Shown: piece by piece, positions 1 through 64,000 of the stretch
Layout: each line of letters opens with the position of its first letter
Numbering within the stretch: the first letter of the stretch is position 1
IMG/VR virus record: IMGVR_UViG_3300043438_001900
Strand: one strand, 5' to 3'
Length of the DNA stretch: 64,000 nt
From: an uncultured virus (IMG/VR IMGVR_UViG_3300043438_001900)
Taxonomy: Duplodnaviria > Heunggongvirae > Uroviricota > Caudoviricetes
Translations under genes and position numbers: made by a program
Notes under the pieces: generated by a model
Seen by the model: only the letters and a program-made list of their open reading frames with translations
Told to the model about the DNA's origin: nothing
Database searches by the model: none

Positions 1-3000
1 AACCGAAACTATTTGGGTAAACATTTAGATTATTTCCAAAAAATTTCCTAGCAAAAAATAGATTAGATTGACCAATTACCCAATAACCCAACGTACCGTT
101 AATACCTCCGGCTGTTTGTACTGAACCCTCAATTAATCCTGTTAGGTTAAGAGAACCAGAACCTGACATTATAACGTCAGAACCAACCTCTAAAATTGTT
201 ACCACAAGACCTGATGTAGGTGTTGGAGTAGGTGTACTCGTAGGAGTTGGGGTACTTGTTGATGTTGGAGTAGGTGTATTTGTTTCCGTCGGAGTTGGTG
301 TTGGTGTCTCTGTCGCCGTAGGTGTTGGTGTAGGTGTTGGTGTTGGTGCACAATCAACTAATATTGATTTTACAACAATATTTGATAGGTTGTTTCTATC
401 TCTCGCAGCGACCCAATATGTTTTCGTGATGTTAGGTATTGGAAGACCGTAACCAACATAACCATTAGGATTCAAAACTGTTGACCATTGCGTTTCATTC
501 AATGCCTCCAATTCGGTATCATATAATCCATTACCTCTATCATAAAAACCTGAACCACCAGTGTAGTGATGTGTACTAACCGCACCGTCATCAACACAAG
601 TACCTGAAATTTCAAAATCTAAAGGACTTTCTGTTGGAGTTGGTGTACTTGTTGCGGTCGGTGTCGGTGTAGGAGTTGGGGTTTCCGTAGGGGTTGGAGT
701 TGGTGTAGGACAAATCCAAGTGGTTACTGAATCATTATAATTCTGTAAAACATCTGAAGATGAAATTGCACCATCCCATATTTCTAATCTACCAAATTTA
801 AGTGCGGAATATGTTCCATCATTTAAGTTTGTACTATCCGTTGCACCTATTGCATAATATAAACCATTACCACTTTGGTATGGTGCCTCTCTAACAACTG
901 TTGATGAACCAGCACTTTGACCATTTACATATGCGGTTAAAGTTGTGTTGTTGTATACAAATCCAATATAATACCAATTATTAAGGGGTGTTGATATTGA
1001 TGATGTTATTTCACTACCATATGGCCACACACTAAACTTCAATGTTCCATCAACTAACTCAATTTGTGAATCGTGCCAACCAATGTTTAAAACAGCACTA
1101 CCTTGTTCACTCAATATTACACCATTATCTGTTAAATAAACCCAAAGAAATATAGATGTATCTGTAGAATCATAAAGTGTATTAATTGAGGTGTTGGTTA
1201 AAATATATTGACTGGTACCGTTCAACACTATTGACGAAGTACATCCATCATTTTGATATGATGGTGAACCAATTATACTTGCATTTGTGTTACCCAAAAT
1301 GTCCGTAACCGTTGTTCCACTTCCAGAATATGATATTGAATCATTTATGTTTAAGTCAACAATTTTGTTATATGGTACCATTGTTGGTGTAGGAGTAGGT
1401 GTTGGTGTATTAGTTGGAGTTGGTGTACTTGTCTCCGTAGGTGTTGGTGTTGGGGTTTCCGTAGGGGTCGGAGTTGGGGTTATTGGACAGACCCCACAAT
1501 CAGTTCTATATGTTGCGATATTACTCCCATCCATATTAATGGTTTTATAATAACCATTATGGACAATTGTTCCCCAACCACTAAAACCAAATCCATCTCC
1601 ATTTGTTACAAAAACATTTGAATCACAGAACGTTGGCCCGTCACCCGTCACATAAAATCTTGGACATTCTCCCACAGGACAATTACAAGTTCCCTCAACA
1701 GAATCTTCTCCCAATGTTATTTCACCATAAAATACTGCTGGTGGTCTTAATACTGTATATTGAATATCGTTATTCGGTATTAATGTATAAGATAAATCGG
1801 TATTCGGTATTATTGTATATGTTACATCGTTATTGGGTAAGGTTATATAAAGAACATCGTTGTCTGGAATAAAAGTTGTTGAAAAATCACCTGAAGGAAT
1901 TAATGTATACGTTAAATCGTTATTCGGTATTAATGTGTAAATGAAATCTCCATTTGGAATAATATTATAAATAAAATCATTTTCAGGTATATAAGGAGTT
2001 ACTGTTGATGTTGGTGTTGGAGTTGGAGTTGAAGTTAAACACACAACATCAGTACAATCAGAAACCGTTGTTAATGTATCTAAATCATAATCGAATGTTG
2101 GACCTAAATCAAGACCAACAATTTCGTAACACACACTATTCCCAATACTATAAGTTATTCCAGCTAACCCACTTGTTAAACTTCTACCTATCTTATTGTG
2201 TGTTCGATTACAATCCCTTAGATAGTAATAATAGTAAACTACCGGAGTTTGTGTTGGTGTACTTGTAGGAGTTGGTGTTAATGTTGGAGTAATAGTTCCT
2301 GTTGGTGTACTTGTAGGAGTTGGTGTTATCTCCGAAAAAATTAATGCCAATGAAACATTATCGTTAAATTGTTCGGTACTATTAGTATTAATCACCAATG
2401 GAGTGTACTCAAAGAATGTTTTATTCAAATCATCAAAATTTTCGGGTAATGTTTGAGTGTATTGACCTATAAGGTCACCGGCATATATTGTAATAGAAAT
2501 TGGTATTTCTAAAATACTTTCGTCATTTAATTTTAAAGTGTTAGTGGTTGTTAAGGTAATATCATCCGCAATTACCCTATCTATGGTTGCATCGTAATGA
2601 CAAACAATTGAACCACTACCGATTACGCCACTAAATGTTAACACAACGGGTCCGACCGTTGTGGTCGATGTTGGCGTGGGAGTTGGAGTCGATGTTGGTG
2701 TTGGTGTTGGGAATAAAACCCCTATCACCTCATCGGGACAATCCGCAACACATTCAACGATATTGTAATATGGTTTAACATCCACTAAATAATGGTGCCT
2801 AACGTGAACAAAATCAAGAGGTTCTTCATAGTATCGTACTCTCTTAAAGTTAAAACATGAAATACCCATATTGTGAATTCCACCTGAATATTCCGTTCCT
2901 GACCCCCAAGATTGTATAAAAGGTTGAACACCTCTTGTTGATGGGATAATTTCCTCCCAATCTTTTATTTTATAAACAGGTCTACCATTTAGGTATATTT

Positions 3001-4084
3001 TTAAAACACCTAATCGTCTATTTCTCTCGTCGGCCCATTTTTTATTTAATAATTCAACGGTATTATGTACTGCAATTTGTGTTGATGTAACCGCAGTAAC
3101 TCCGGTATTTGGAACATATTCATTTACGATATGTTCAGGAATTAAGTCATTCCACCCACCGTCATTCTCAATATTACAATCCGTCAAATGACGATATCTG
3201 TCAAAAGTTATTGTGATTTCAAAATCTTCAGATGTTCCATCAATACAAAGTTGAGGGGTTTGTCCCGATGCGATGTAATAACTTTGACCATAAACACCAT
3301 CATCCGAACACGCTCCCGAATAGTGAACTGCTCTCCATTGAATTCTTCTATCATCGGTAAATGAAAATGAAAGATTATTATCGGCATAGTCAGAAATACT
3401 ACTATCTCCTCTTGTACCTAAATAATAAAATACTTTACCCACAGACCACGGTAATTCTTCCCTATTGAATACAAAATCCAAAGTCCAACCCTTTTCAGTT
3501 CTTCTTTGAATAATTGGATTACAGTCATTTCCCGAGGCGGCACCGTGATTGGTTTGATACGCCCATGGTTTTGCGTTTGATGGTGAATCTACTGGACAAC
3601 AATGGTCTTCCTCCCATAATCTTGGAATACACGCAATTGGTGCACCGACAGTTAATCCTGTGACATTTAAAGAAAATGGATTGGAAAGTGGAGAATTGTA
3701 ACTATATGTTCTAAAATAATGGGTAATACCACTAACATCCACGAATTCATATACGTCATTTTGTAAAATTGTGTCAGAATTACCTAAACGATTAGTGAAG
3801 TCAGAATATGAAAGGGTCCATGTATATGCAGAATATGGGTATGTGGGGTCATTAATTCTATTATCGTACTCGACAATAGTAATCCTATCTCGGGAACATA
3901 ATGTACCCATAAGACCCGTAGTATTTATCTTCAAAGAGGAATAAACGATTGGTGTGGTAAGGTCAAGAACCTCGGTATTGTAATCTACCTCAGTTTTACC
4001 CACCTCATAATCGTGAAATTCCGATGTATCGAGTTTCAAATCAAATTTGCTACCCCAAAATTTTAGTATATTCTGACTATTCAT
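1..4084 (-). CDS. Large virion fibre/adhesin-like protein with PT linkers and a LamG-like domain (runs off left edge)
   Basis: Manual minus-strand translation from ATG at 4084 (MNSQNILKFWGSKFDL...) stays open to position 1. Several (TP)n linkers separate beta-rich domains, including a LamG-like WYYIGFVYNNTTLTAYVNG...LEIWDGAISSSDVLQNY. Missing from the ORF track because no stop lies in the window. Confidence 0.8.
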   Translation of the reverse strand, partial: MNSQNILKFWGSKFDLKLDTSEFHDYEVGKTEVDYNTEVLDLTTPIVYSSLKINTTGLMGTLCSRDRITIVEYDNRINDPTYPYSAYTWTLSYSDFTNRLGNSDTILQNDVYEFVDVSGITHYFRTYSYNSPLSNPFSLNVTGLTVGAPIACIPRLWEEDHCCPVDSPSNAKPWAYQTNHGAASGNDCNPIIQRRTEKGWTLDFVFNREELPWSVGKVFYYLGTRGDSSISDYADNNLSFSFTDDRRIQWRAVHYSGACSDDGVYGQSYYIASGQTPQLCIDGTSEDFEITITFDRYRHLTDCNIENDGGWNDLIPEHIVNEYVPNTGVTAVTSTQIAVHNTVELLNKKWADERNRRLGVLKIYLNGRPVYKIKDWEEIIPSTRGVQPFIQSWGSGTEYSGGIHNMGISCFNFKRVRYYEEPLDFVHVRHHYLVDVKPYYNIVECVADCPDEVIGVLFPTPTPTSTPTPTPTSTTTVGPVVLTFSGVIGSGSIVCHYDATIDRVIADDITLTTTNTLKLNDESILEIPISITIYAGDLIGQYTQTLPENFDDLNKTFFEYTPLVINTNSTEQFNDNVSLALIFSEITPTPTSTPTGTITPTLTPTPTSTPTQTPVVYYYYYLRDCNRTHNKIGRSLTSGLAGITYSIGNSVCYEIVGLDLGPTFDYDLDTLTTVSDCTDVVCLTSTPTPTPTSTVTPYIPENDFIYNIIPNGDFIYTLIPNNDLTYTLIPSGDFSTTFIPDNDVLYITLPNNDVTYTIIPNTDLSYTLIPNNDIQYTVLRPPAVFYGEITLGEDSVEGTCNCPVGECPRFYVTGDGPTFCDSNVFVTNGDGFGFSGWGTIVHNGYYKTINMDGSNIATYRTDCGVCPITPTPTPTETPTPTPTETSTPTPTNTPTPTPTPTMVPYNKIVDLNINDSISYSGSGTTVTDILGNTNASIIGSPSYQNDGCTSSIVLNGTSQYILTNTSINTLYDSTDTSIFLWVYLTDNGVILSEQGSAVLNIGWHDSQIELVDGTLKFSVWPYGSEITSSISTPLNNWYYIGFVYNNTTLTAYVNGQSAGSSTVVREAPYQSGNGLYYAIGATDSTNLNDGTYSALKFGRLEIWDGAISSSDVLQNYNDSVTTWICPTPTPTPTETPTPTPTPTATSTPTPTESPLDFEISGTCVDDGAVSTHHYTGGSGFYDRGNGLYDTELEALNETQWSTVLNPNGYVGYGLPIPNITKTYWVAARDRNNLSNIVVKSILVDCAPTPTPTPTPTATETPTPTPTETNTPTPTSTSTPTPTSTPTPTPTSGLVVTILEVGSDVIMSGSGSLNLTGLIEGSVQTAGGINGTLGYWVIGQSNLFFARKFFGNNLNVYPNSFG
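1760..1995 (-). repeat. About 8 copies of a 30-bp/10-aa coding repeat (IPxNDxxYTx)
   Basis: Translation: IPENDFIYII IPNGDFIYTL IPNNDLTYTL IPSGDFSTTF IPDNDVLYIT LPNNDVTYTI IPNTDLSYTL IPNNDIQYTV. Confidence 0.85.
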
Positions 4085-6043: not shown

Positions 6044-6906
6044 TGAGAAATTTTGAAGACATAGTAATTGATATTTTAATGGAGGCAGCGCCTAAAGGTT
6101 CTATTAGAGCCAGGTTAAAGTCTGCCATTGAAAATCGTTACCCTGTTTCATTTTATTATAACGGACCAAAGGGTGAGGTTTTACCGGGAAGAAGAATTAA
6201 GGCGGAGATGGTCGCTATGGGGTTAACAAAAAAAGGTAATCTTGTTGTTAGAGCATGGGTACAACCACCATCAACCTCCAAAAAGGGGTTTGAAGAACAC
6301 GGATGGAGACTTTTTAATTTAAAAAGAATGTCAGGTATTCAAATCTATGAAGATGAGACGTTTGACACTAAAAGACCCGATTATAATCCTGACGGTGACC
6401 GTAGTTTAACCACAATTGACGCTAAGAGTAATTGGGGAACAACCACACCTACTAAGGTTGAACCTAAACCTACTGAAGTTCCAACAATAGAAAAACCAAT
6501 ACCAACAGTTGAACCTAAACCACAACCCGAACCAACAACACCCGAATTACCACAACCAAAGAGTGATGAGAGACCTTCACCGGTCCCAACACCTGAAGTT
6601 AAAAGAGATGTTGAGGTTTTTAACGATTTAAAAACAAAAGTAACCGATGTTGAGGGTCAGAAACTAATATCTCCTGATGATTTTAAAAATTCGATAGATA
6701 TTCTTTATAAAAAGAAATTAGAGGATTGGAAAGAATTACAAAACCAAGCGGGTGGTAATACAACTGCAGGTGAGGGTACAAGAAGAAGACTCGAGAAAGA
6801 CTCGGAATCTGATTTGTATCAATTGATGAAAAATGACAAAATTGTTGTTGGTCAAACACAATTACAAGAATCTATAAAAAGAATGAAGACTTTAATCTTC
6901 TTCTAA
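6043..6906 (+). CDS. WYL-domain-like protein with Pro-rich linker
   Basis: VSFYY...RRIKAEMVAMG...VVRAW...GWRLFNLKRMSGIQI resembles the WYL pattern. Confidence 0.6.
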   Translation: MRNFEDIVIDILMEAAPKGSIRARLKSAIENRYPVSFYYNGPKGEVLPGRRIKAEMVAMGLTKKGNLVVRAWVQPPSTSKKGFEEHGWRLFNLKRMSGIQIYEDETFDTKRPDYNPDGDRSLTTIDAKSNWGTTTPTKVEPKPTEVPTIEKPIPTVEPKPQPEPTTPELPQPKSDERPSPVPTPEVKRDVEVFNDLKTKVTDVEGQKLISPDDFKNSIDILYKKKLEDWKELQNQAGGNTTAGEGTRRRLEKDSESDLYQLMKNDKIVVGQTQLQESIKRMKTLIFF

Positions 6907-54101: not shown

Positions 54102-54312
54102 CAAAAAACAATACCTTACATAAGACGGATTAGCACCGTTGAAAGGAACCTTGGCTTCAATCGGAGTAATTACCGTAACCGAAGTAATAATGACCCAAGG
54201 TACTATGTGATGGACCCTGCTCTATGGTGCACTCATAACAGGTGAACAGTAAACTATGTTCAATCAAATTCAAAACCACGGTGAGCGTGGAAGGTATTGT
54301 TTTTTATTTAAC

Positions 54313-57903: not shown

Positions 57904-58365
57904 ATGAAAATTTTTAAGACATTACACGGAACACCGGTAAATGACATCATCAACTACATCAAAGATTACCTAAAAGGACGAGAAGACGTTGAACTATTAA
58001 TTGGTTCAGACTCACAATCGTTTAGTAATTCTAAAACAGTGTATGGGGTTGTTATTGCTCTTTACACAAAAGGAAAAGGTGCACACGTGTTATGTACTAA
58101 AGATACAACTCCTTTTGAAAAAGACACATCTAGTAGATTAATGACTGAGGTATGGAAGGCGGTAGAAATTGCTGAGTTCCTTAGAGAAAATGGATTACCA
58201 AGGGCATCATGGATTGATATCGACTTGAATCCTGACCCAAGATATAAATCAAACAAAGTTCTAAGACAGGCGGTTGGTTTAGTTGAAGGTATGGGTTATA
58301 GAGTTAGATATAAACATAACGGTGCAATGATAACCTATAGTGCGAACCACTTAGTAAGAATATAA
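57904..58365 (+). CDS. RNase H-like YkuK (DUF458) family protein
   Basis: IGSDSQ, RLMTEVWKAVEIA, IDIDLN, SANH. Confidence 0.8.
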   Translation: MKIFKTLHGTPVNDIINYIKDYLKGREDVELLIGSDSQSFSNSKTVYGVVIALYTKGKGAHVLCTKDTTPFEKDTSSRLMTEVWKAVEIAEFLRENGLPRASWIDIDLNPDPRYKSNKVLRQAVGLVEGMGYRVRYKHNGAMITYSANHLVRI

Positions 58366-58793
58366 TGGAAAAGAACATCAACATAGTTAACAGACGTGCA
58401 AAATTCGAATATCATTTTATTGATACCCTCATTGCGGGGGTATCATTGAATGGTGTTGAAGTTAAGTTCATTAGGAAGGGACATTTAACTTTTACACCTG
58501 ATTCGTTTTGTCATTTTCAAAATGGTGAACTGTTCTTAAAGAATGTTACCATATCGGGAATTGGTGATGATAACATGAAGAGAGATAGAAAATTGTTACT
58601 CAAGAAAAAAGAGTTGACTAAACTTAATAAAGAACTCACCAACGGTTTAACAATTATACCATATCGTTTATTTGAGAATGATAGAGGAATGTTTAAAGTT
58701 GAAGTGTGTCTTGCCAAAGGAAAAAAACTTCACGATAAACGTGAGACAATTAAAGAAAGAGATATTCAAAGGGAAATAAAAAATTTCCACTAA
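58365..58793 (+). CDS. smpB: SsrA-binding protein SmpB
   Basis: NRRAKFEY, AGVSLNGVEVKFIR, RDRKLLLKKKE, GLTIIP, LAKGKKLHDKRETIKERD. Confidence 0.93.
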   Translation: MEKNINIVNRRAKFEYHFIDTLIAGVSLNGVEVKFIRKGHLTFTPDSFCHFQNGELFLKNVTISGIGDDNMKRDRKLLLKKKELTKLNKELTNGLTIIPYRLFENDRGMFKVEVCLAKGKKLHDKRETIKERDIQREIKNFH

Positions 58794-58954
58794 ATAATTC
58801 ATTCTTTATGAATACGGAGAATATTTTCCACTAAAACCCCATTTTCGGTGATTATTTTCCATTATAAAAAAATATTTTAAAAAAATTTACAAAAACACTT
58901 GTTTTTTAAAATATATTATGTACCTTTGTATTACAACAATTAATTACGACATTT

Positions 58955-61027
58955 ATGACGACAAGAAATTTAGTTTCCTTTCAGAAGGGTTTGGTATGTT
59001 CACCAAACGACGGTCAAGATAATAGAATCGCAGTGGCGACCGTTCAATCTCACTTAATGGAGTGGGGTTATATGTTAGACGAAGATGCATTCTTCGCATT
59101 ATCCAAATCAGATTTATCGTTCATAGAGAACTTCAACAACGAAGTCGTTACACATTTGAAAAATGTAATGGGAGGTAATCGTAATTACCAACCTTTATAT
59201 AAAAACTTCCCACAAGAAGTTATGTCAATGTCTGATTTCGAATTGTATATTAATGCAATTACCCACTATTGGAGTAACGGTACTTGGGAACCATCTACCC
59301 ATACTTTTGAAAAAGAAATCAAGTTTGAGAAAATCAAATACAACTTGATTAAGTATGGCACATCGGAAAGATTTTCACAAATCTTCACTGATTTGGTTTC
59401 AATTAATACATCATTGACACCTCAAGACCTTGAGATTGTTAAATGGTTCGTTAACAGTGGTGAAACATTAGTATTCCCTAATACAATTCCATTCAAAGAG
59501 AATTTGTGTACATTGGCGGCAATGGGAATTGAGGGATTACCAGTTAAGACATCAACTGACGTGTTAAGAATCGCCGTTCATCTTTCAGGTGGAGACATCA
59601 GTTTACCTAAAGTTCCTGAAAAGGAAATTAGATTAAACAGATGGTCATCTGCAAAGGGTGAGAACCCTGAAAGAGAAAAGTTTAAATTCAAGAAGTTCAC
59701 TCGTAAAGAGAGACGTTACATCTTGGGTTTACTTGAGAACACAAACTGTGACCCACGTGAAATGGTTTTAAAAGACCAACGTTGGATTCGTTTAGGTGAA
59801 ATATTACATCCAGGTGAATATAAAAATCAATTCCCAAAATCTTTTGATGCATTCAATAAGATTAGAAACGAGAAAGTAAAATCTTGGTTCTCACTTGTTA
59901 ATGAAGGTTTCAATAAAGGTCTTGAGAATGGTTTGAGAGTATTGTCTCAAAAACCCGGTGAATTCGCAAGAAGAATCGATTGGTTGGTTCGTACATATCC
60001 AAAAGATATCGAAGTAATCATGACACACTTCAGCGAAACGGTAAAAGGTACATCGAACAAAGTATTGTTTGAAGTTTACGCTCACTTTGAAAATCGTACT
60101 GAACCTATGGATAATAGGTCCGTTATGATAAAGGGGTCAAGAAAACGTACCATGTTACCATCACTACCAGCAATCCCTAAAGAGATTGTGGAAACCATCC
60201 ACTCTAAATTATTTGAAACACTTAGAGATAAGTTTTCAGTAATGGATTCTTTGGGTAACTGTTGGATTGATGAGGAATTGAAAAAGATTCCTTTACCAAC
60301 CAACATGAGAAGTATGAACTTTTCAACTAAACCAACAATCAGAGGTCAAAGAGTTCCACTCGATAACCCTGATGCAAAAGTTATCAGACCTTTCATTCAT
60401 TGGATGGATAAACATGGTAGTGAAGATTTGGATTTAAGTGTTACGTTTGTTGGTGAAAAAGTGTCAGATGTATTATCTTTCAGTAACTTGAGAGTTGGTG
60501 AATCTGTTCACTCGGGGGACGTGAGACACAGACAGGGTCCTTGTGCTGAGTACATCGACATTGATATGGAAGATGCATTGAACCGTGGATACAAATATGT
60601 AGTCATTGACGTGAGAAACTTCAATGGTGGTAGTTTGAATTCACTTGAAACATCTTTTGGTATCATGGAGAGAGAACACCCCGAATCAAATAAAACATGG
60701 TTACCTGAGACAATTTCAAATTGTCAATCATTGGGGTCAACGTCGTCAAACACTTTGATTTCAATCATTGACCTTGAAACCAAGGAGTATATCATGTTGG
60801 ATATAGATTCAGAAGGTTTTGTAACCGCAAGAAGTGACTTCAAAAACACCCTTAAAGTAATTCAACAATACGCTGAGTTACCAAAAGTAAGTGTTTACGA
60901 CCTTATTCTTCTACACGTAGAAGGAAGAGGTAAACAAGTTACCCTTGACGAGAATGTGGATACACATTTTAAGTACGAGGACTTCTGTTACTCTTATGAA
61001 GAGACAGGAAAATTGATGGGTGTGTAA
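58955..61027 (+). CDS. Large helical protein with C-terminal TerD-like domain (possible Ro60/TROVE-like RNA binder)
   Basis: 690 aa; DLDLSV, HSGDV, AEYIDID are TerD-like; N-terminal PLYKNFP, TDVLR, RLGEILHPGEY, PGEFARRIDWL. TROVE-likeness is inferred. Confidence 0.65.
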   Translation: MTTRNLVSFQKGLVCSPNDGQDNRIAVATVQSHLMEWGYMLDEDAFFALSKSDLSFIENFNNEVVTHLKNVMGGNRNYQPLYKNFPQEVMSMSDFELYINAITHYWSNGTWEPSTHTFEKEIKFEKIKYNLIKYGTSERFSQIFTDLVSINTSLTPQDLEIVKWFVNSGETLVFPNTIPFKENLCTLAAMGIEGLPVKTSTDVLRIAVHLSGGDISLPKVPEKEIRLNRWSSAKGENPEREKFKFKKFTRKERRYILGLLENTNCDPREMVLKDQRWIRLGEILHPGEYKNQFPKSFDAFNKIRNEKVKSWFSLVNEGFNKGLENGLRVLSQKPGEFARRIDWLVRTYPKDIEVIMTHFSETVKGTSNKVLFEVYAHFENRTEPMDNRSVMIKGSRKRTMLPSLPAIPKEIVETIHSKLFETLRDKFSVMDSLGNCWIDEELKKIPLPTNMRSMNFSTKPTIRGQRVPLDNPDAKVIRPFIHWMDKHGSEDLDLSVTFVGEKVSDVLSFSNLRVGESVHSGDVRHRQGPCAEYIDIDMEDALNRGYKYVVIDVRNFNGGSLNSLETSFGIMEREHPESNKTWLPETISNCQSLGSTSSNTLISIIDLETKEYIMLDIDSEGFVTARSDFKNTLKVIQQYAELPKVSVYDLILLHVEGRGKQVTLDENVDTHFKYEDFCYSYEETGKLMGV

Positions 61028-61054
61028 ATCACCTGTCAGTTCTTTGAAATATTA

Positions 61055-61366
61055 ATGTGGCTATGTGAGTCACTGAGAGGATAACCTTTACCTATTATAG
61101 GTGACCACGTAGTGGTACTATCTTAGGTCTTAGAGAAGGTGAAAGTATCGGTGCAAATGTCTTACTTCTAACATACAAAAATCAGATACAACGTTAGACA
61201 CACAATTCTCCACATAAACTTATTGACGGCTATGTACCGGGTTACTTCTACAAAACAATTGGATGTTAAACCACCCGTACTCTTTCCGTCTACCTTATTA
61301 CCGGCTATGAGTGTAGTTACTTCTAAACCTATCTAAATGAAAAAACCACTCGTTCAATTTCCGGTA
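61055..61366 (+). ncRNA. Array of three related hairpin RNAs (GGCTATG...TTACTTCTA)
   Basis: Units 61055-61215, 61225-61290, 61299-61366 share two motifs and have covarying stems. Confidence 0.75.
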
Positions 61367-61405: not shown

Positions 61406-61855
61406 ATGACAACATCAAAAACAACAGATGAAAAAGTAAAAGAACTATTCGACTTAGTTCAATCAAAAAAATTAGCAATTGAAAAGGCTGAAAGACCTTG
61501 CTGGAAAACAAGTGGTAATTTCGGTTACTCAGCAAATTCAGCACATGACAGAACGTCTATCCCAACGGTAACAGACACTCGTAAAATCGTTGAAATGTTC
61601 GCATTTCTAATCGATAGAAAAGATAAATCTGAATCTGCAGCAAAAGAACTTGGTGTGGACTATAATTTTACTTGGTTAGGATTCGGTGTTGATGAGTGGA
61701 AAGAAGATTTTCAAACTCGTGTAAACCAAATCTCAGTCCAAGAAAAACGTAAGGAACTTGCCGAATTAGAATCTCGTTTGAATGCAATTATCTCACCTGA
61801 GTTAAAGGCACAAATGGAACTTGAGGCAATCGCCAAACTTTTAGAGAATAACTAA
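61406..61855 (+). CDS. Hypothetical protein
   Basis: Likely start MTTSKTT at 61406 (the longer ORF overlaps RNA unit 3). Confidence 0.7.
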   Translation: MTTSKTTDEKVKELFDLVQSKKLAIEKAERPCWKTSGNFGYSANSAHDRTSIPTVTDTRKIVEMFAFLIDRKDKSESAAKELGVDYNFTWLGFGVDEWKEDFQTRVNQISVQEKRKELAELESRLNAIISPELKAQMELEAIAKLLENN

Positions 61856-61976
61856 AAGTGTTTTTCTTAGTTTAGTAAAACTAAGTGGTGGAGTCGACTT
61901 CGGTCAGCACCCGAAAGGGGGGTTGGATTTGTCTAACCTCCTTTTTTTTATCAAATATTTTTTATATCTTTATATC

Positions 61977-63715: not shown

Positions 63716-64000
63716 GGGGATGAATGGAATTGATTGGCGTTGGTATTGTACGTGGGCACGTAGTCGGATGTCATCTACGACTTAAATAAATGGTGGTAAC
63801 AATTAGACGGCAACGTTTACAACAACATGGAAGTAGCTGGTTTACTAGCAACTTCTAAGGTGGCAGCCTAACCGCTCCCACTGGACGGGTCGATGGACAT
63901 ATAACCTTGGAACAGAAGTCCTCACGGTGTGGTACCTACCCAAAAAGGTACAAATGGTCTCGTTCAGAGTGCTACCATAAAAAAAGTGAACTCGACACAG
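63716..64000 (+). ncRNA. ssrA: tmRNA (3' end beyond the window)
   Basis: 5' GGGGATGAATGGAATTGA; internal tag ORF 63809-63871 GNVYNNMEVAGLLATSKVAA*; TACCTTTG promoter box upstream; smpB nearby. Confidence 0.85.

Follow-up and report, generated by a model that had tools for sequence, protein, structure and literature searches.

Ro60 (Rsr) proteins and the Y RNAs that accompany them, YrlA and YrlB (RF02553) among them, are the closest described counterparts of the system reported here; a helical ring such as theirs is predicted here (PMC4201824; PMC12135203). ROT/TROVE proteins with tRNA-like partners also occur in some jumbo phages, and the passages on them do not describe the RNA considered below (PMC7824862). 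The locus of interest lies in a 64,000-nucleotide stretch (the window) of an uncultured Caudoviricetes virus, IMG/VR record IMGVR_UViG_3300043438_001900, in which a gene for a 690-aa protein is followed by an array of three small RNA units. The RNA family is real, is accompanied by a probable divergent Ro-type partner and is hitherto undescribed in the literature searched. Together, gene and array are likely to specify a Ro60/Y-RNA-like ribonucleoprotein (RNP) of a separate lineage, and we put the probability that the array RNAs form a particle with the 690-aa protein at roughly 0.85. An analogy to Ro60/Y RNA had been proposed in a sequence-only reading of the window; fold, co-occurrence, strand and covariation now favour it, all of them indirectly, while the guide role that it also entertained is not supported and the 149-aa protein is not a general partner. 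The elements concerned are as follows.

58955..61027, plus strand: gene for the 690-aa protein, comprising an N-terminal alpha/beta region, a predicted TROVE/Ro60-like helical ring and a C-terminal TerD domain
59330..60370, plus strand: likely Ro60-like helical repeat ring (residues 126-472), assigned from the predicted model, fold match and conservation
60371..60871, plus strand: TerD-fold domain (residues 473-639), at the place of the vWA domain of Ro60
61039..61050, plus strand: boxA-like GTTCTTTGAAAT, candidate antitermination signal
61055..61215, plus strand: RNA unit 1, with handle, ~90-nt insert (61068-61158) and apical loop (61170-61195)
61225..61290, plus strand: RNA unit 2, with handle and loop (61250-61272); covariance model score 52 bits
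61299..61366, plus strand: RNA unit 3, with handle and A-rich loop (61325-61347); covariance model score 64 bits, a near-identical unit being in the model

As in Ro60/Y RNA loci, several small RNAs lie beside the protein gene, on the same strand and within a few kb, and the loci have ties to tRNA clusters, RtcB and RtcR. Each RNA has a terminal stem with a conserved motif, which in Y RNA binds the protein, and this stem bears a module that varies. Among the modules are permuted T/D/acceptor domains of tRNA, which score as partial YrlA. The differences are equally clear. The protein has a C-terminal TerD domain in place of a von Willebrand factor A (vWA) domain with MIDAS (metal-ion-dependent adhesion site), and PF05731 does not match it. 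The handle is GGCUAU/UU(A/C)CUUCU/YUUCC instead of the YrlA motif GNCGAAN0-1G, and in permuted form it can occupy the anticodon arm of a tRNA. Unlike in Y RNA, a second invariant box precedes the arm and arrays reach 8 units, the longest being in phages; unlike in the published YrlA model, the arms often display anticodon stem-loops.

The full-length model of the 690-aa protein has a predicted local distance difference test (pLDDT) score of 84.6, and three Ro60 structures in the PDB align with it over ~300 residues (Z 5.6, 4.7, 4.2). Folded alone, ring residues 126-472 reach a pLDDT of 93.6. A fold search for a TROVE-like ring, as suggested in the sequence-only reading, placed Ro60 at ranks 1-3 when the isolated ring was compared with 48,161 PDB chains (Z 9.1/6.9/6.9; root-mean-square deviation (rmsd) 4.7-5.5). 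These alignments span 251-267 of the 347 ring residues (~75%); most other rows cover ~45-120. Among 113 homologues, R205 and R339 of the ring are invariant and R304, R381, R388, R452, R463 and K181 are kept in at least 90%. Other results tell against a Ro-type assignment. The best Ro60 match (Z 9.1, rmsd 5.0) is moderate and falls in a range common for helical repeats. Foldseek returned no match for the isolated ring at E <= 0.001 and, for the full model, only TerD, the lower rows being noise and Ro60 absent. A PDB sequence-profile search of the protein did not find Ro60, and PADLOC gave no match. Because Foldseek and the sequence profile miss Ro60, homology of the modelled ring to Ro60 is likely, short of proven.

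The TerD domain anticipated from the sequence is borne out by fold over residues 473-639 (Z 14.9, rmsd 2.5, 150 aligned residues) and not by Pfam, a scan of which matched nothing in the 690-aa protein, including PF05731 TROVE and TerD. The beta-sandwich fold and conserved acidic, putatively metal-binding residues of the TerD superfamily (D493, D522 and E532) are present, and D493, S520, G521, D522 and E532, the acidic and HSGD residues, are invariant in the 113 homologues. No nuclease domain is predicted in the protein. NCBIfam model NF041916, which describes the MXAN_6230/SCO0854 RING family, matches at E 6e-70 with 236 bits, below its cut-off of 600, and the protein contains neither a CxxC motif nor a RING finger. 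By sequence comparison it is a RING-less homologue of this family, whose members are named 'TerD family' or 'RING finger family 4 domain-containing' and with which homology is clear. The Pfam Prok-RING_4 text reportedly describes the MXAN_6230/SCO0854 family as ROT/TROVE-like; the literature searched describes no RNA partner for it. At E <= 1e-10 the protein family comprises 2,339 clusters; 12 phage records and 30 plasmid records contain homologues. In loci L067 and L038/L039/L051 the gene is present a second time, directly or shortly downstream. Two homologues (G017:C180:691-2910 and G029:C114:10990-13209) were matched as two overlapping pieces in long open frames, which suggests internal duplication or insertion.

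All the elements first described in the window are present: three units, a boxA-like site and TACTTCTA, which is invariant (61163, 61243 and 61318, one per unit). Units 2 and 3 adopt the fold proposed for them. The handle GGCUAU / UU(A/C)CUUCU / YUUCC has covarying stems, and its boxes are GGCUAU, UUACUUCU and YUUCC. GGCTAT-N6-20-TTACTTCT has two occurrences in the window and none in 100 shuffles; the same two are the only ones in the nearest phage record (G001, 310,691 bases), which has all sampled words in common with the window. Folding z-scores are -2.1, -1.98 and -3.10 for units 1, 2 and 3, and the stability of the entire 378-nt array region is ordinary (z -0.58). The unit 1 insert, which the sequence-only reading had not described, is structured and sits in the 5' strand of the inner stem, where units usually have a one-base bulge; its helices covary among 13 relatives, with two-sided changes at 12 of 29 pairs. 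Within it, strands 61077-61083 and 61141-61147 form a symmetric GA...UA / GA...UA internal loop, conserved as GAGGAUA/GAAAGUA, which by eye is like loop E of 5S rRNA; the loop E strands read GAUGGUA/GAGAGUA in the 5S rRNA-L25 structure (PMC1920249). A conserved hairpin, 4 bp capped by a 6-nt AUUGGA loop, lies in the unit 2 loop; it is an imperfect likeness of a Pro-UGG or Ser-GGA anticodon arm, and the unit 2 loop is inherited among relatives. The unit 3 loop is poorly conserved and drifts between relatives. None of the window's three units has a T/D domain. Close relatives carry 1-4 extra units, some with clear anticodon arms, which this genome lacks.

The family was surveyed with a script that scores the two boxes and two stems over 244 loci plus the window; many of the environmental loci are redundant, and the bacterial loci are the best 80 of 308. 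In this set 615 units lie on the strand of the gene and 9 on the opposite strand, and 543 of the 615 fall between -500 and +749 of the gene. Units adjoin the gene in 79/80 bacterial and 120/156 environmental loci. The bacterial carriers include Planctomycetota, Bacillota, Verrucomicrobiota, Armatimonadota, Acidobacteriota and Pseudomonadota, among others. A covariance model detects units by homologues in XacN1, RpAliso, Weasels2, Variovorax, Streptomyces and Deinococcus, and RING-family homologues likewise have units nearby (loci L242 and L243). The stems differ between units with pairing retained, as had been noted from the window alone: in 80 units, 11 of 14 pairs show two-sided changes, 90.6% of cells are paired, and the covariation score is 0.81, compared with 0.19 for shuffled alignments and at most 0.16 for slid registers, figures that are inflated because the units were chosen by pairing score.

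Co-occurrence had been proposed as a check in the sequence-only reading, together with a covariance model. In one genus (26 genomes), all 10 genomes with the protein have two units just upstream of its gene and none of the other 16 has any; this probably reflects a single cassette passed on by inheritance and not ten separate events. Among 141 genomes sampled from a phylum, the protein is present in 8, units accompany it in 7 of these (5 by genome scan and 2 locally), and the 133 genomes without the protein have none. No units were therefore found in 149 sampled protein-lacking genomes (16 + 133), where at most the best 150 or best 35 candidates per genome were considered. Rfam 15 gave no match at gathering score for the handle in the window or in 12 loci, and the YrlA motif GNCGAAN0-1G (or GGUCCGA) occurs in the first 25 nt of 0/385 units and nowhere in the window array. 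The RNA family is absent from Rfam, conserved and strand-specific, and is tied to one protein family. Of 133 environmental loci with full flanks, 32 yielded no units to the script; 19 of these belong to one large-phage clade. One record of that clade (G009, of L232) has 3 units at 58739-58904 and 336411-336489, on the opposite strand and ~20 kb or more from the gene. In three other script-missed loci (L188, L201 and L207) the outer GG/CC stem has become A/U pairs and the UUACUUC box is retained; in L188 the handle has been inserted in a tRNA-Arg-like gene that is duplicated. Two incomplete environmental records among the script-missed loci contain no units. In L239 (RpAliso), positions 2449-3500 hold units with a GCGCAU first box, two of them with YrlA-like domains, 3' of a permuted transfer-messenger RNA (tmRNA).

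The variable arms were compared with tRNA in 259 non-redundant units, drawn from 385 distinct units by way of 307 whose handle is regular, whose loop measures 8-60 nt and which lack a T arm. A 7-nt loop closed by four Watson-Crick pairs is found in 64/259 units, compared with 16.8+-3.6 in shuffled loops; the corresponding counts are 34 against 18.9 expected for 6-nt loops and 17 against 14.9 for 8-nt loops. This test of loop size and position was used because a reverse-complement control for 7-mers cannot discriminate hairpins. Among 68 seven-nt loops, U33 is present in 57, a purine at 37 in 57, A or C at 38 in 61 and C32 in 38; 18 have a non-canonical A32. With homopolymer stems excluded, the excess persists in bacteria alone (19/117 versus 5.1+-2.2) and in phage and metagenome sequences alone (34/131 versus 7.1+-2.4). 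The displayed anticodons are diverse, Lys-UUU being the most frequent (12/55), and one stem type bears 10 different loops across loci. Other parts of tRNA appear as well: a T arm in 41/385 units, permuted tRNAs opened at the anticodon loop for Thr (L105), Gly (L108) and Lys (Weasels2), whole tRNAs within the unit loop (L081 and L074), and 13 distinct tRNA-like genes in which the handle itself is permuted and located in the anticodon arm. Units with T/D arms score 26-47 bits against RF02553 (YrlA), whose gathering score is 69. Across the family the loops range from 11 to >90 nt and are self-paired and tRNA-derived. The arms are thus drawn from tRNA across the family, which sharpens the earlier suggestion that the loops serve as decoys or adaptors: they mimic anticodon arms and other tRNA parts.

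These observations suggest the following mechanism. The operon would be transcribed with boxA antitermination, and the transcript would be cut in the A/U-rich spacers to give RNAs of 65-160 nt. The helical ring would clamp the handle at its outer stem (GG/CC), its internal loop (CUAU/YUU) and its unpaired box (UU(A/C)CUUCU), a contact that we infer from fold, conservation and co-occurrence; clamping would stabilise the RNA and present the variable arm outward. As sequence and structure statistics show across the family, the arms copy RNAs of translation, namely anticodon stem-loops, T/D arms, whole or permuted tRNAs and, in the window, a loop-E-like arm. Serving as decoys for anticodon nucleases and for toxins that modify tRNA, or as their competitive inhibitors, they would allow translation to continue in the infected or attacked cell. 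In this phage the particle may act alongside the tRNA cluster, SmpB and tmRNA.

That the tRNA mimicry is functional seems probable from the comparative evidence; that the arms are decoys or inhibitors directed at anticodon-attacking enzymes is plausible, at somewhat under even odds. We favour decoys because the anticodon is displayed and varied, phage arrays are the longest and the locus lies amid translation-rescue genes. YrlA has been considered as a possible competitive inhibitor of an anticodon nuclease (PMC7790460). The anticodon nuclease PARIS cleaves tRNA-Lys, which corresponds to the commonest displayed anticodon, Lys-UUU, and T5 tRNA-Lys counters PARIS (PMC11464382). The conflict is likely the same here; T5 tRNA-Lys is a functional replacement, whereas the units described here cannot be charged or decode, so that bait, inhibitor or adaptor is the role left to them. 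Thr-GGU loops recur among units, and a type VI secretion system toxin reportedly modifies tRNA-Thr(GGU) loops (PMC13617354).

Several findings weigh against the arms being decoys. About 3 in 4 loops have no canonical anticodon hairpin, and the three loops of the window have none and are poor mimics. A plain anticodon 7-mer test is weak (155 versus 141.8+-7.5, with 6/200 shuffles reaching the observed value), and A/U-rich loops bias toward UUU. Stoichiometric decoys defend poorly against catalytic nucleases. In bacteria, 57/69 loci have just 1-2 units, and units lie solely upstream of the gene in 64/79; such an arrangement fits a sensor or autoregulator equally well. A bolder version, which we offer tentatively, is that an ancient second lineage of Ro-type RNPs constitutes a modular, RNA-encoded panel of inhibitors, with one anticodon arm or rRNA motif per unit, from which phages and bacteria would gain, lose and mutate units to neutralise the tRNA- and rRNA-attacking toxins they encounter. 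If true, this would be a form of counter-defence that mimics the toxin substrate in RNA and can be re-targeted through a few base changes.

The association also supplies a likely RNA partner and a testable function for a large unstudied protein family, which is spread over many bacterial phyla as well as plasmids and jumbo phages, and it delimits a family of structured RNAs that Rfam does not contain. It bears on the reason for tRNA mimicry by Y RNA, since the mimicked part changes from unit to unit, and if the arms are indeed decoys they represent a new way of countering defence by anticodon nucleases. Carriers are in culture (phages Weasels2, XacN1 and RpAliso, plus bacteria), making experiments feasible.

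A different use of the same mimicry, which we consider rather unlikely, is that the RNA serves as a tether between the ring and an enzyme recognising the shape of tRNA, as in RYPER, so that damaged tRNA or rRNA is repaired or cleared. Partners could include an RNA ligase (RtcB or another), polynucleotide kinase, PNPase or the CCA-adding enzyme, with different arms for different partners. Tethering by Ro60/Y RNA is established (PMC4201824; PMC12135203), and the T/D-arm units score as partial YrlA. In scans that included 96/143 direct neighbours, genes of RNA-repair type adjoin, as a raw count, 11/80 bacterial loci (RtcB 5, DRB0094-type RNA ligase 2, Thg1 + kinase 2, HD-kinase 1 and RlaP 1); in Variovorax, RtcR and a sigma-54-like site are found upstream, and RtcB, nucleotidyltransferases and tRNAs occur near the gene in cultured phages. 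However, 69/80 bacterial loci have no repair neighbour and most share no gene context at all, and profile searches of G001 found no match to RtcB or to classical Ro60 (PF05731) and an RNA-ligase match only below threshold. This last match (PF09414, E 1.1e-4) is to G001:C1:293204-293653, within a 380-aa frame that immediately precedes the tRNA cluster. Nor does a tether need many different anticodons.

Still less probable is a tripwire, in which the mimic loop serves as bait: once the loop is cleaved or modified, the protein would be released or activated, its TerD domain binding a metal or ligand, or repression of the gene by a leader unit would be lifted. The upstream-only placement of units in 64/79 bacterial loci, the stable hairpin that follows 28/68 upstream arrays and the invariant acidic residues of TerD are compatible with this, one or two units would be enough, and tRNA-damage signalling to such operons is known (PMC7790460). 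Against it, 100/119 environmental loci, the window included, have units solely downstream, some units lie 8-20 kb or more away or within tRNA genes, and neither the neighbour scans nor PADLOC found an effector domain or conserved effector gene.

CRISPR and TIGR arrays likewise consist of a tandem conserved scaffold with variable inserts beside a gene for an RNA-binding protein, and the loops could by analogy base-pair with target RNA or DNA, in line with the guide role offered in the sequence-only reading. We regard this as very improbable. The longest matches of the three loops elsewhere in the phage record are 13, 13 and 14 nt, compared with means of 12.6, 11.8 and 12.5 for shuffled loops, and are therefore at chance; the unit 2 loop is inherited. 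Unlike CRISPR or TIGR spacers, the inserts are structured, tRNA-derived and very unequal in length, and the protein has a different fold with no predicted nuclease domain. Repeats at the level of DNA, or hairpins that arose by chance in an intergenic spacer, are the least credible explanation: the RNA evidence consists of assembled RNA-seq contigs, the array region as a whole is of ordinary stability and outer-stem G-U exceeds A-C only modestly (39 versus 28), but the strand bias, compensatory changes, fusion into tRNA genes and cross-phylum conservation all speak against it.

Downstream of the array, two further elements complete the operon.

61406..61855, plus strand: gene for a 149-aa protein (phrog_2574), 3' of the array
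61866..61950, plus strand: conserved 3' element and intrinsic terminator, closing the operon

The 149-aa gene, which had been put forward as a possible partner, accompanies 88/136 environmental loci and only 1/80 bacterial loci; it is a companion within a phage clade, outside the core system. The ESM Atlas relates its product to Nmad5 (score 0.78, 30% of members), which is a lead only. The 3' element consists of a covarying hairpin, an invariant UGGUGGA, a small hairpin and the terminator, in that order; it is found in ~25 of the related loci listed and has no Rfam match. We take GTTCTTTGAAAT to be a boxA. Such sites are ~20-fold enriched in arrays (1.6 versus 0.08 per kb), occur in 40/55 non-redundant phage arrays and are present in 4 copies in the tRNA cluster of the window; 5/55 arrays have a promoter-like site of their own. 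Metatranscriptome contigs span the 690-aa gene in 4/4 RNA runs examined, of 24 listed; one contig continues past the gene as far as unit 2, and coverage of the array is scant in the remaining three runs. Being ordinary RNA-seq assemblies, to which DNA may contribute, these contigs reveal neither ends, strand nor level. In L017 and L022, an open reading frame that by eye is like a homing endonuclease lies between gene and array, and the array is pushed ~650 nt downstream.

The window comes from a large phage, of which it forms the tRNA region, and the surroundings of the locus are as follows.

1-8 kb upstream: tRNA cluster of 24 tRNA genes
upstream of the 690-aa gene: RNase H-like gene
58365-58793: phage SmpB gene, upstream of the 690-aa gene
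58921..58928, plus strand: TAnnTTTG element upstream of the 690-aa gene, a putative promoter element
63716-64000: tmRNA, cut by the window end and complete in G001 at 6451-6857

TAnnTTTG elements precede the 690-aa gene and many of the tRNAs; we take them to be -7 promoter elements of the Bacteroidota type. A scan for sigma-70 promoters gave a result at chance level. Because of these elements and a homologue with 59% identity in a Puia bin, the host is likely a member of the Bacteroidota. Close relatives are viral and metagenome contigs, and the RNA runs that contain the window stretch are mostly from freshwater. An Rfam freshwater-1 RNA (RF02979, 73.4 bits) lies within the tRNA cluster, at window positions 54206-54268.

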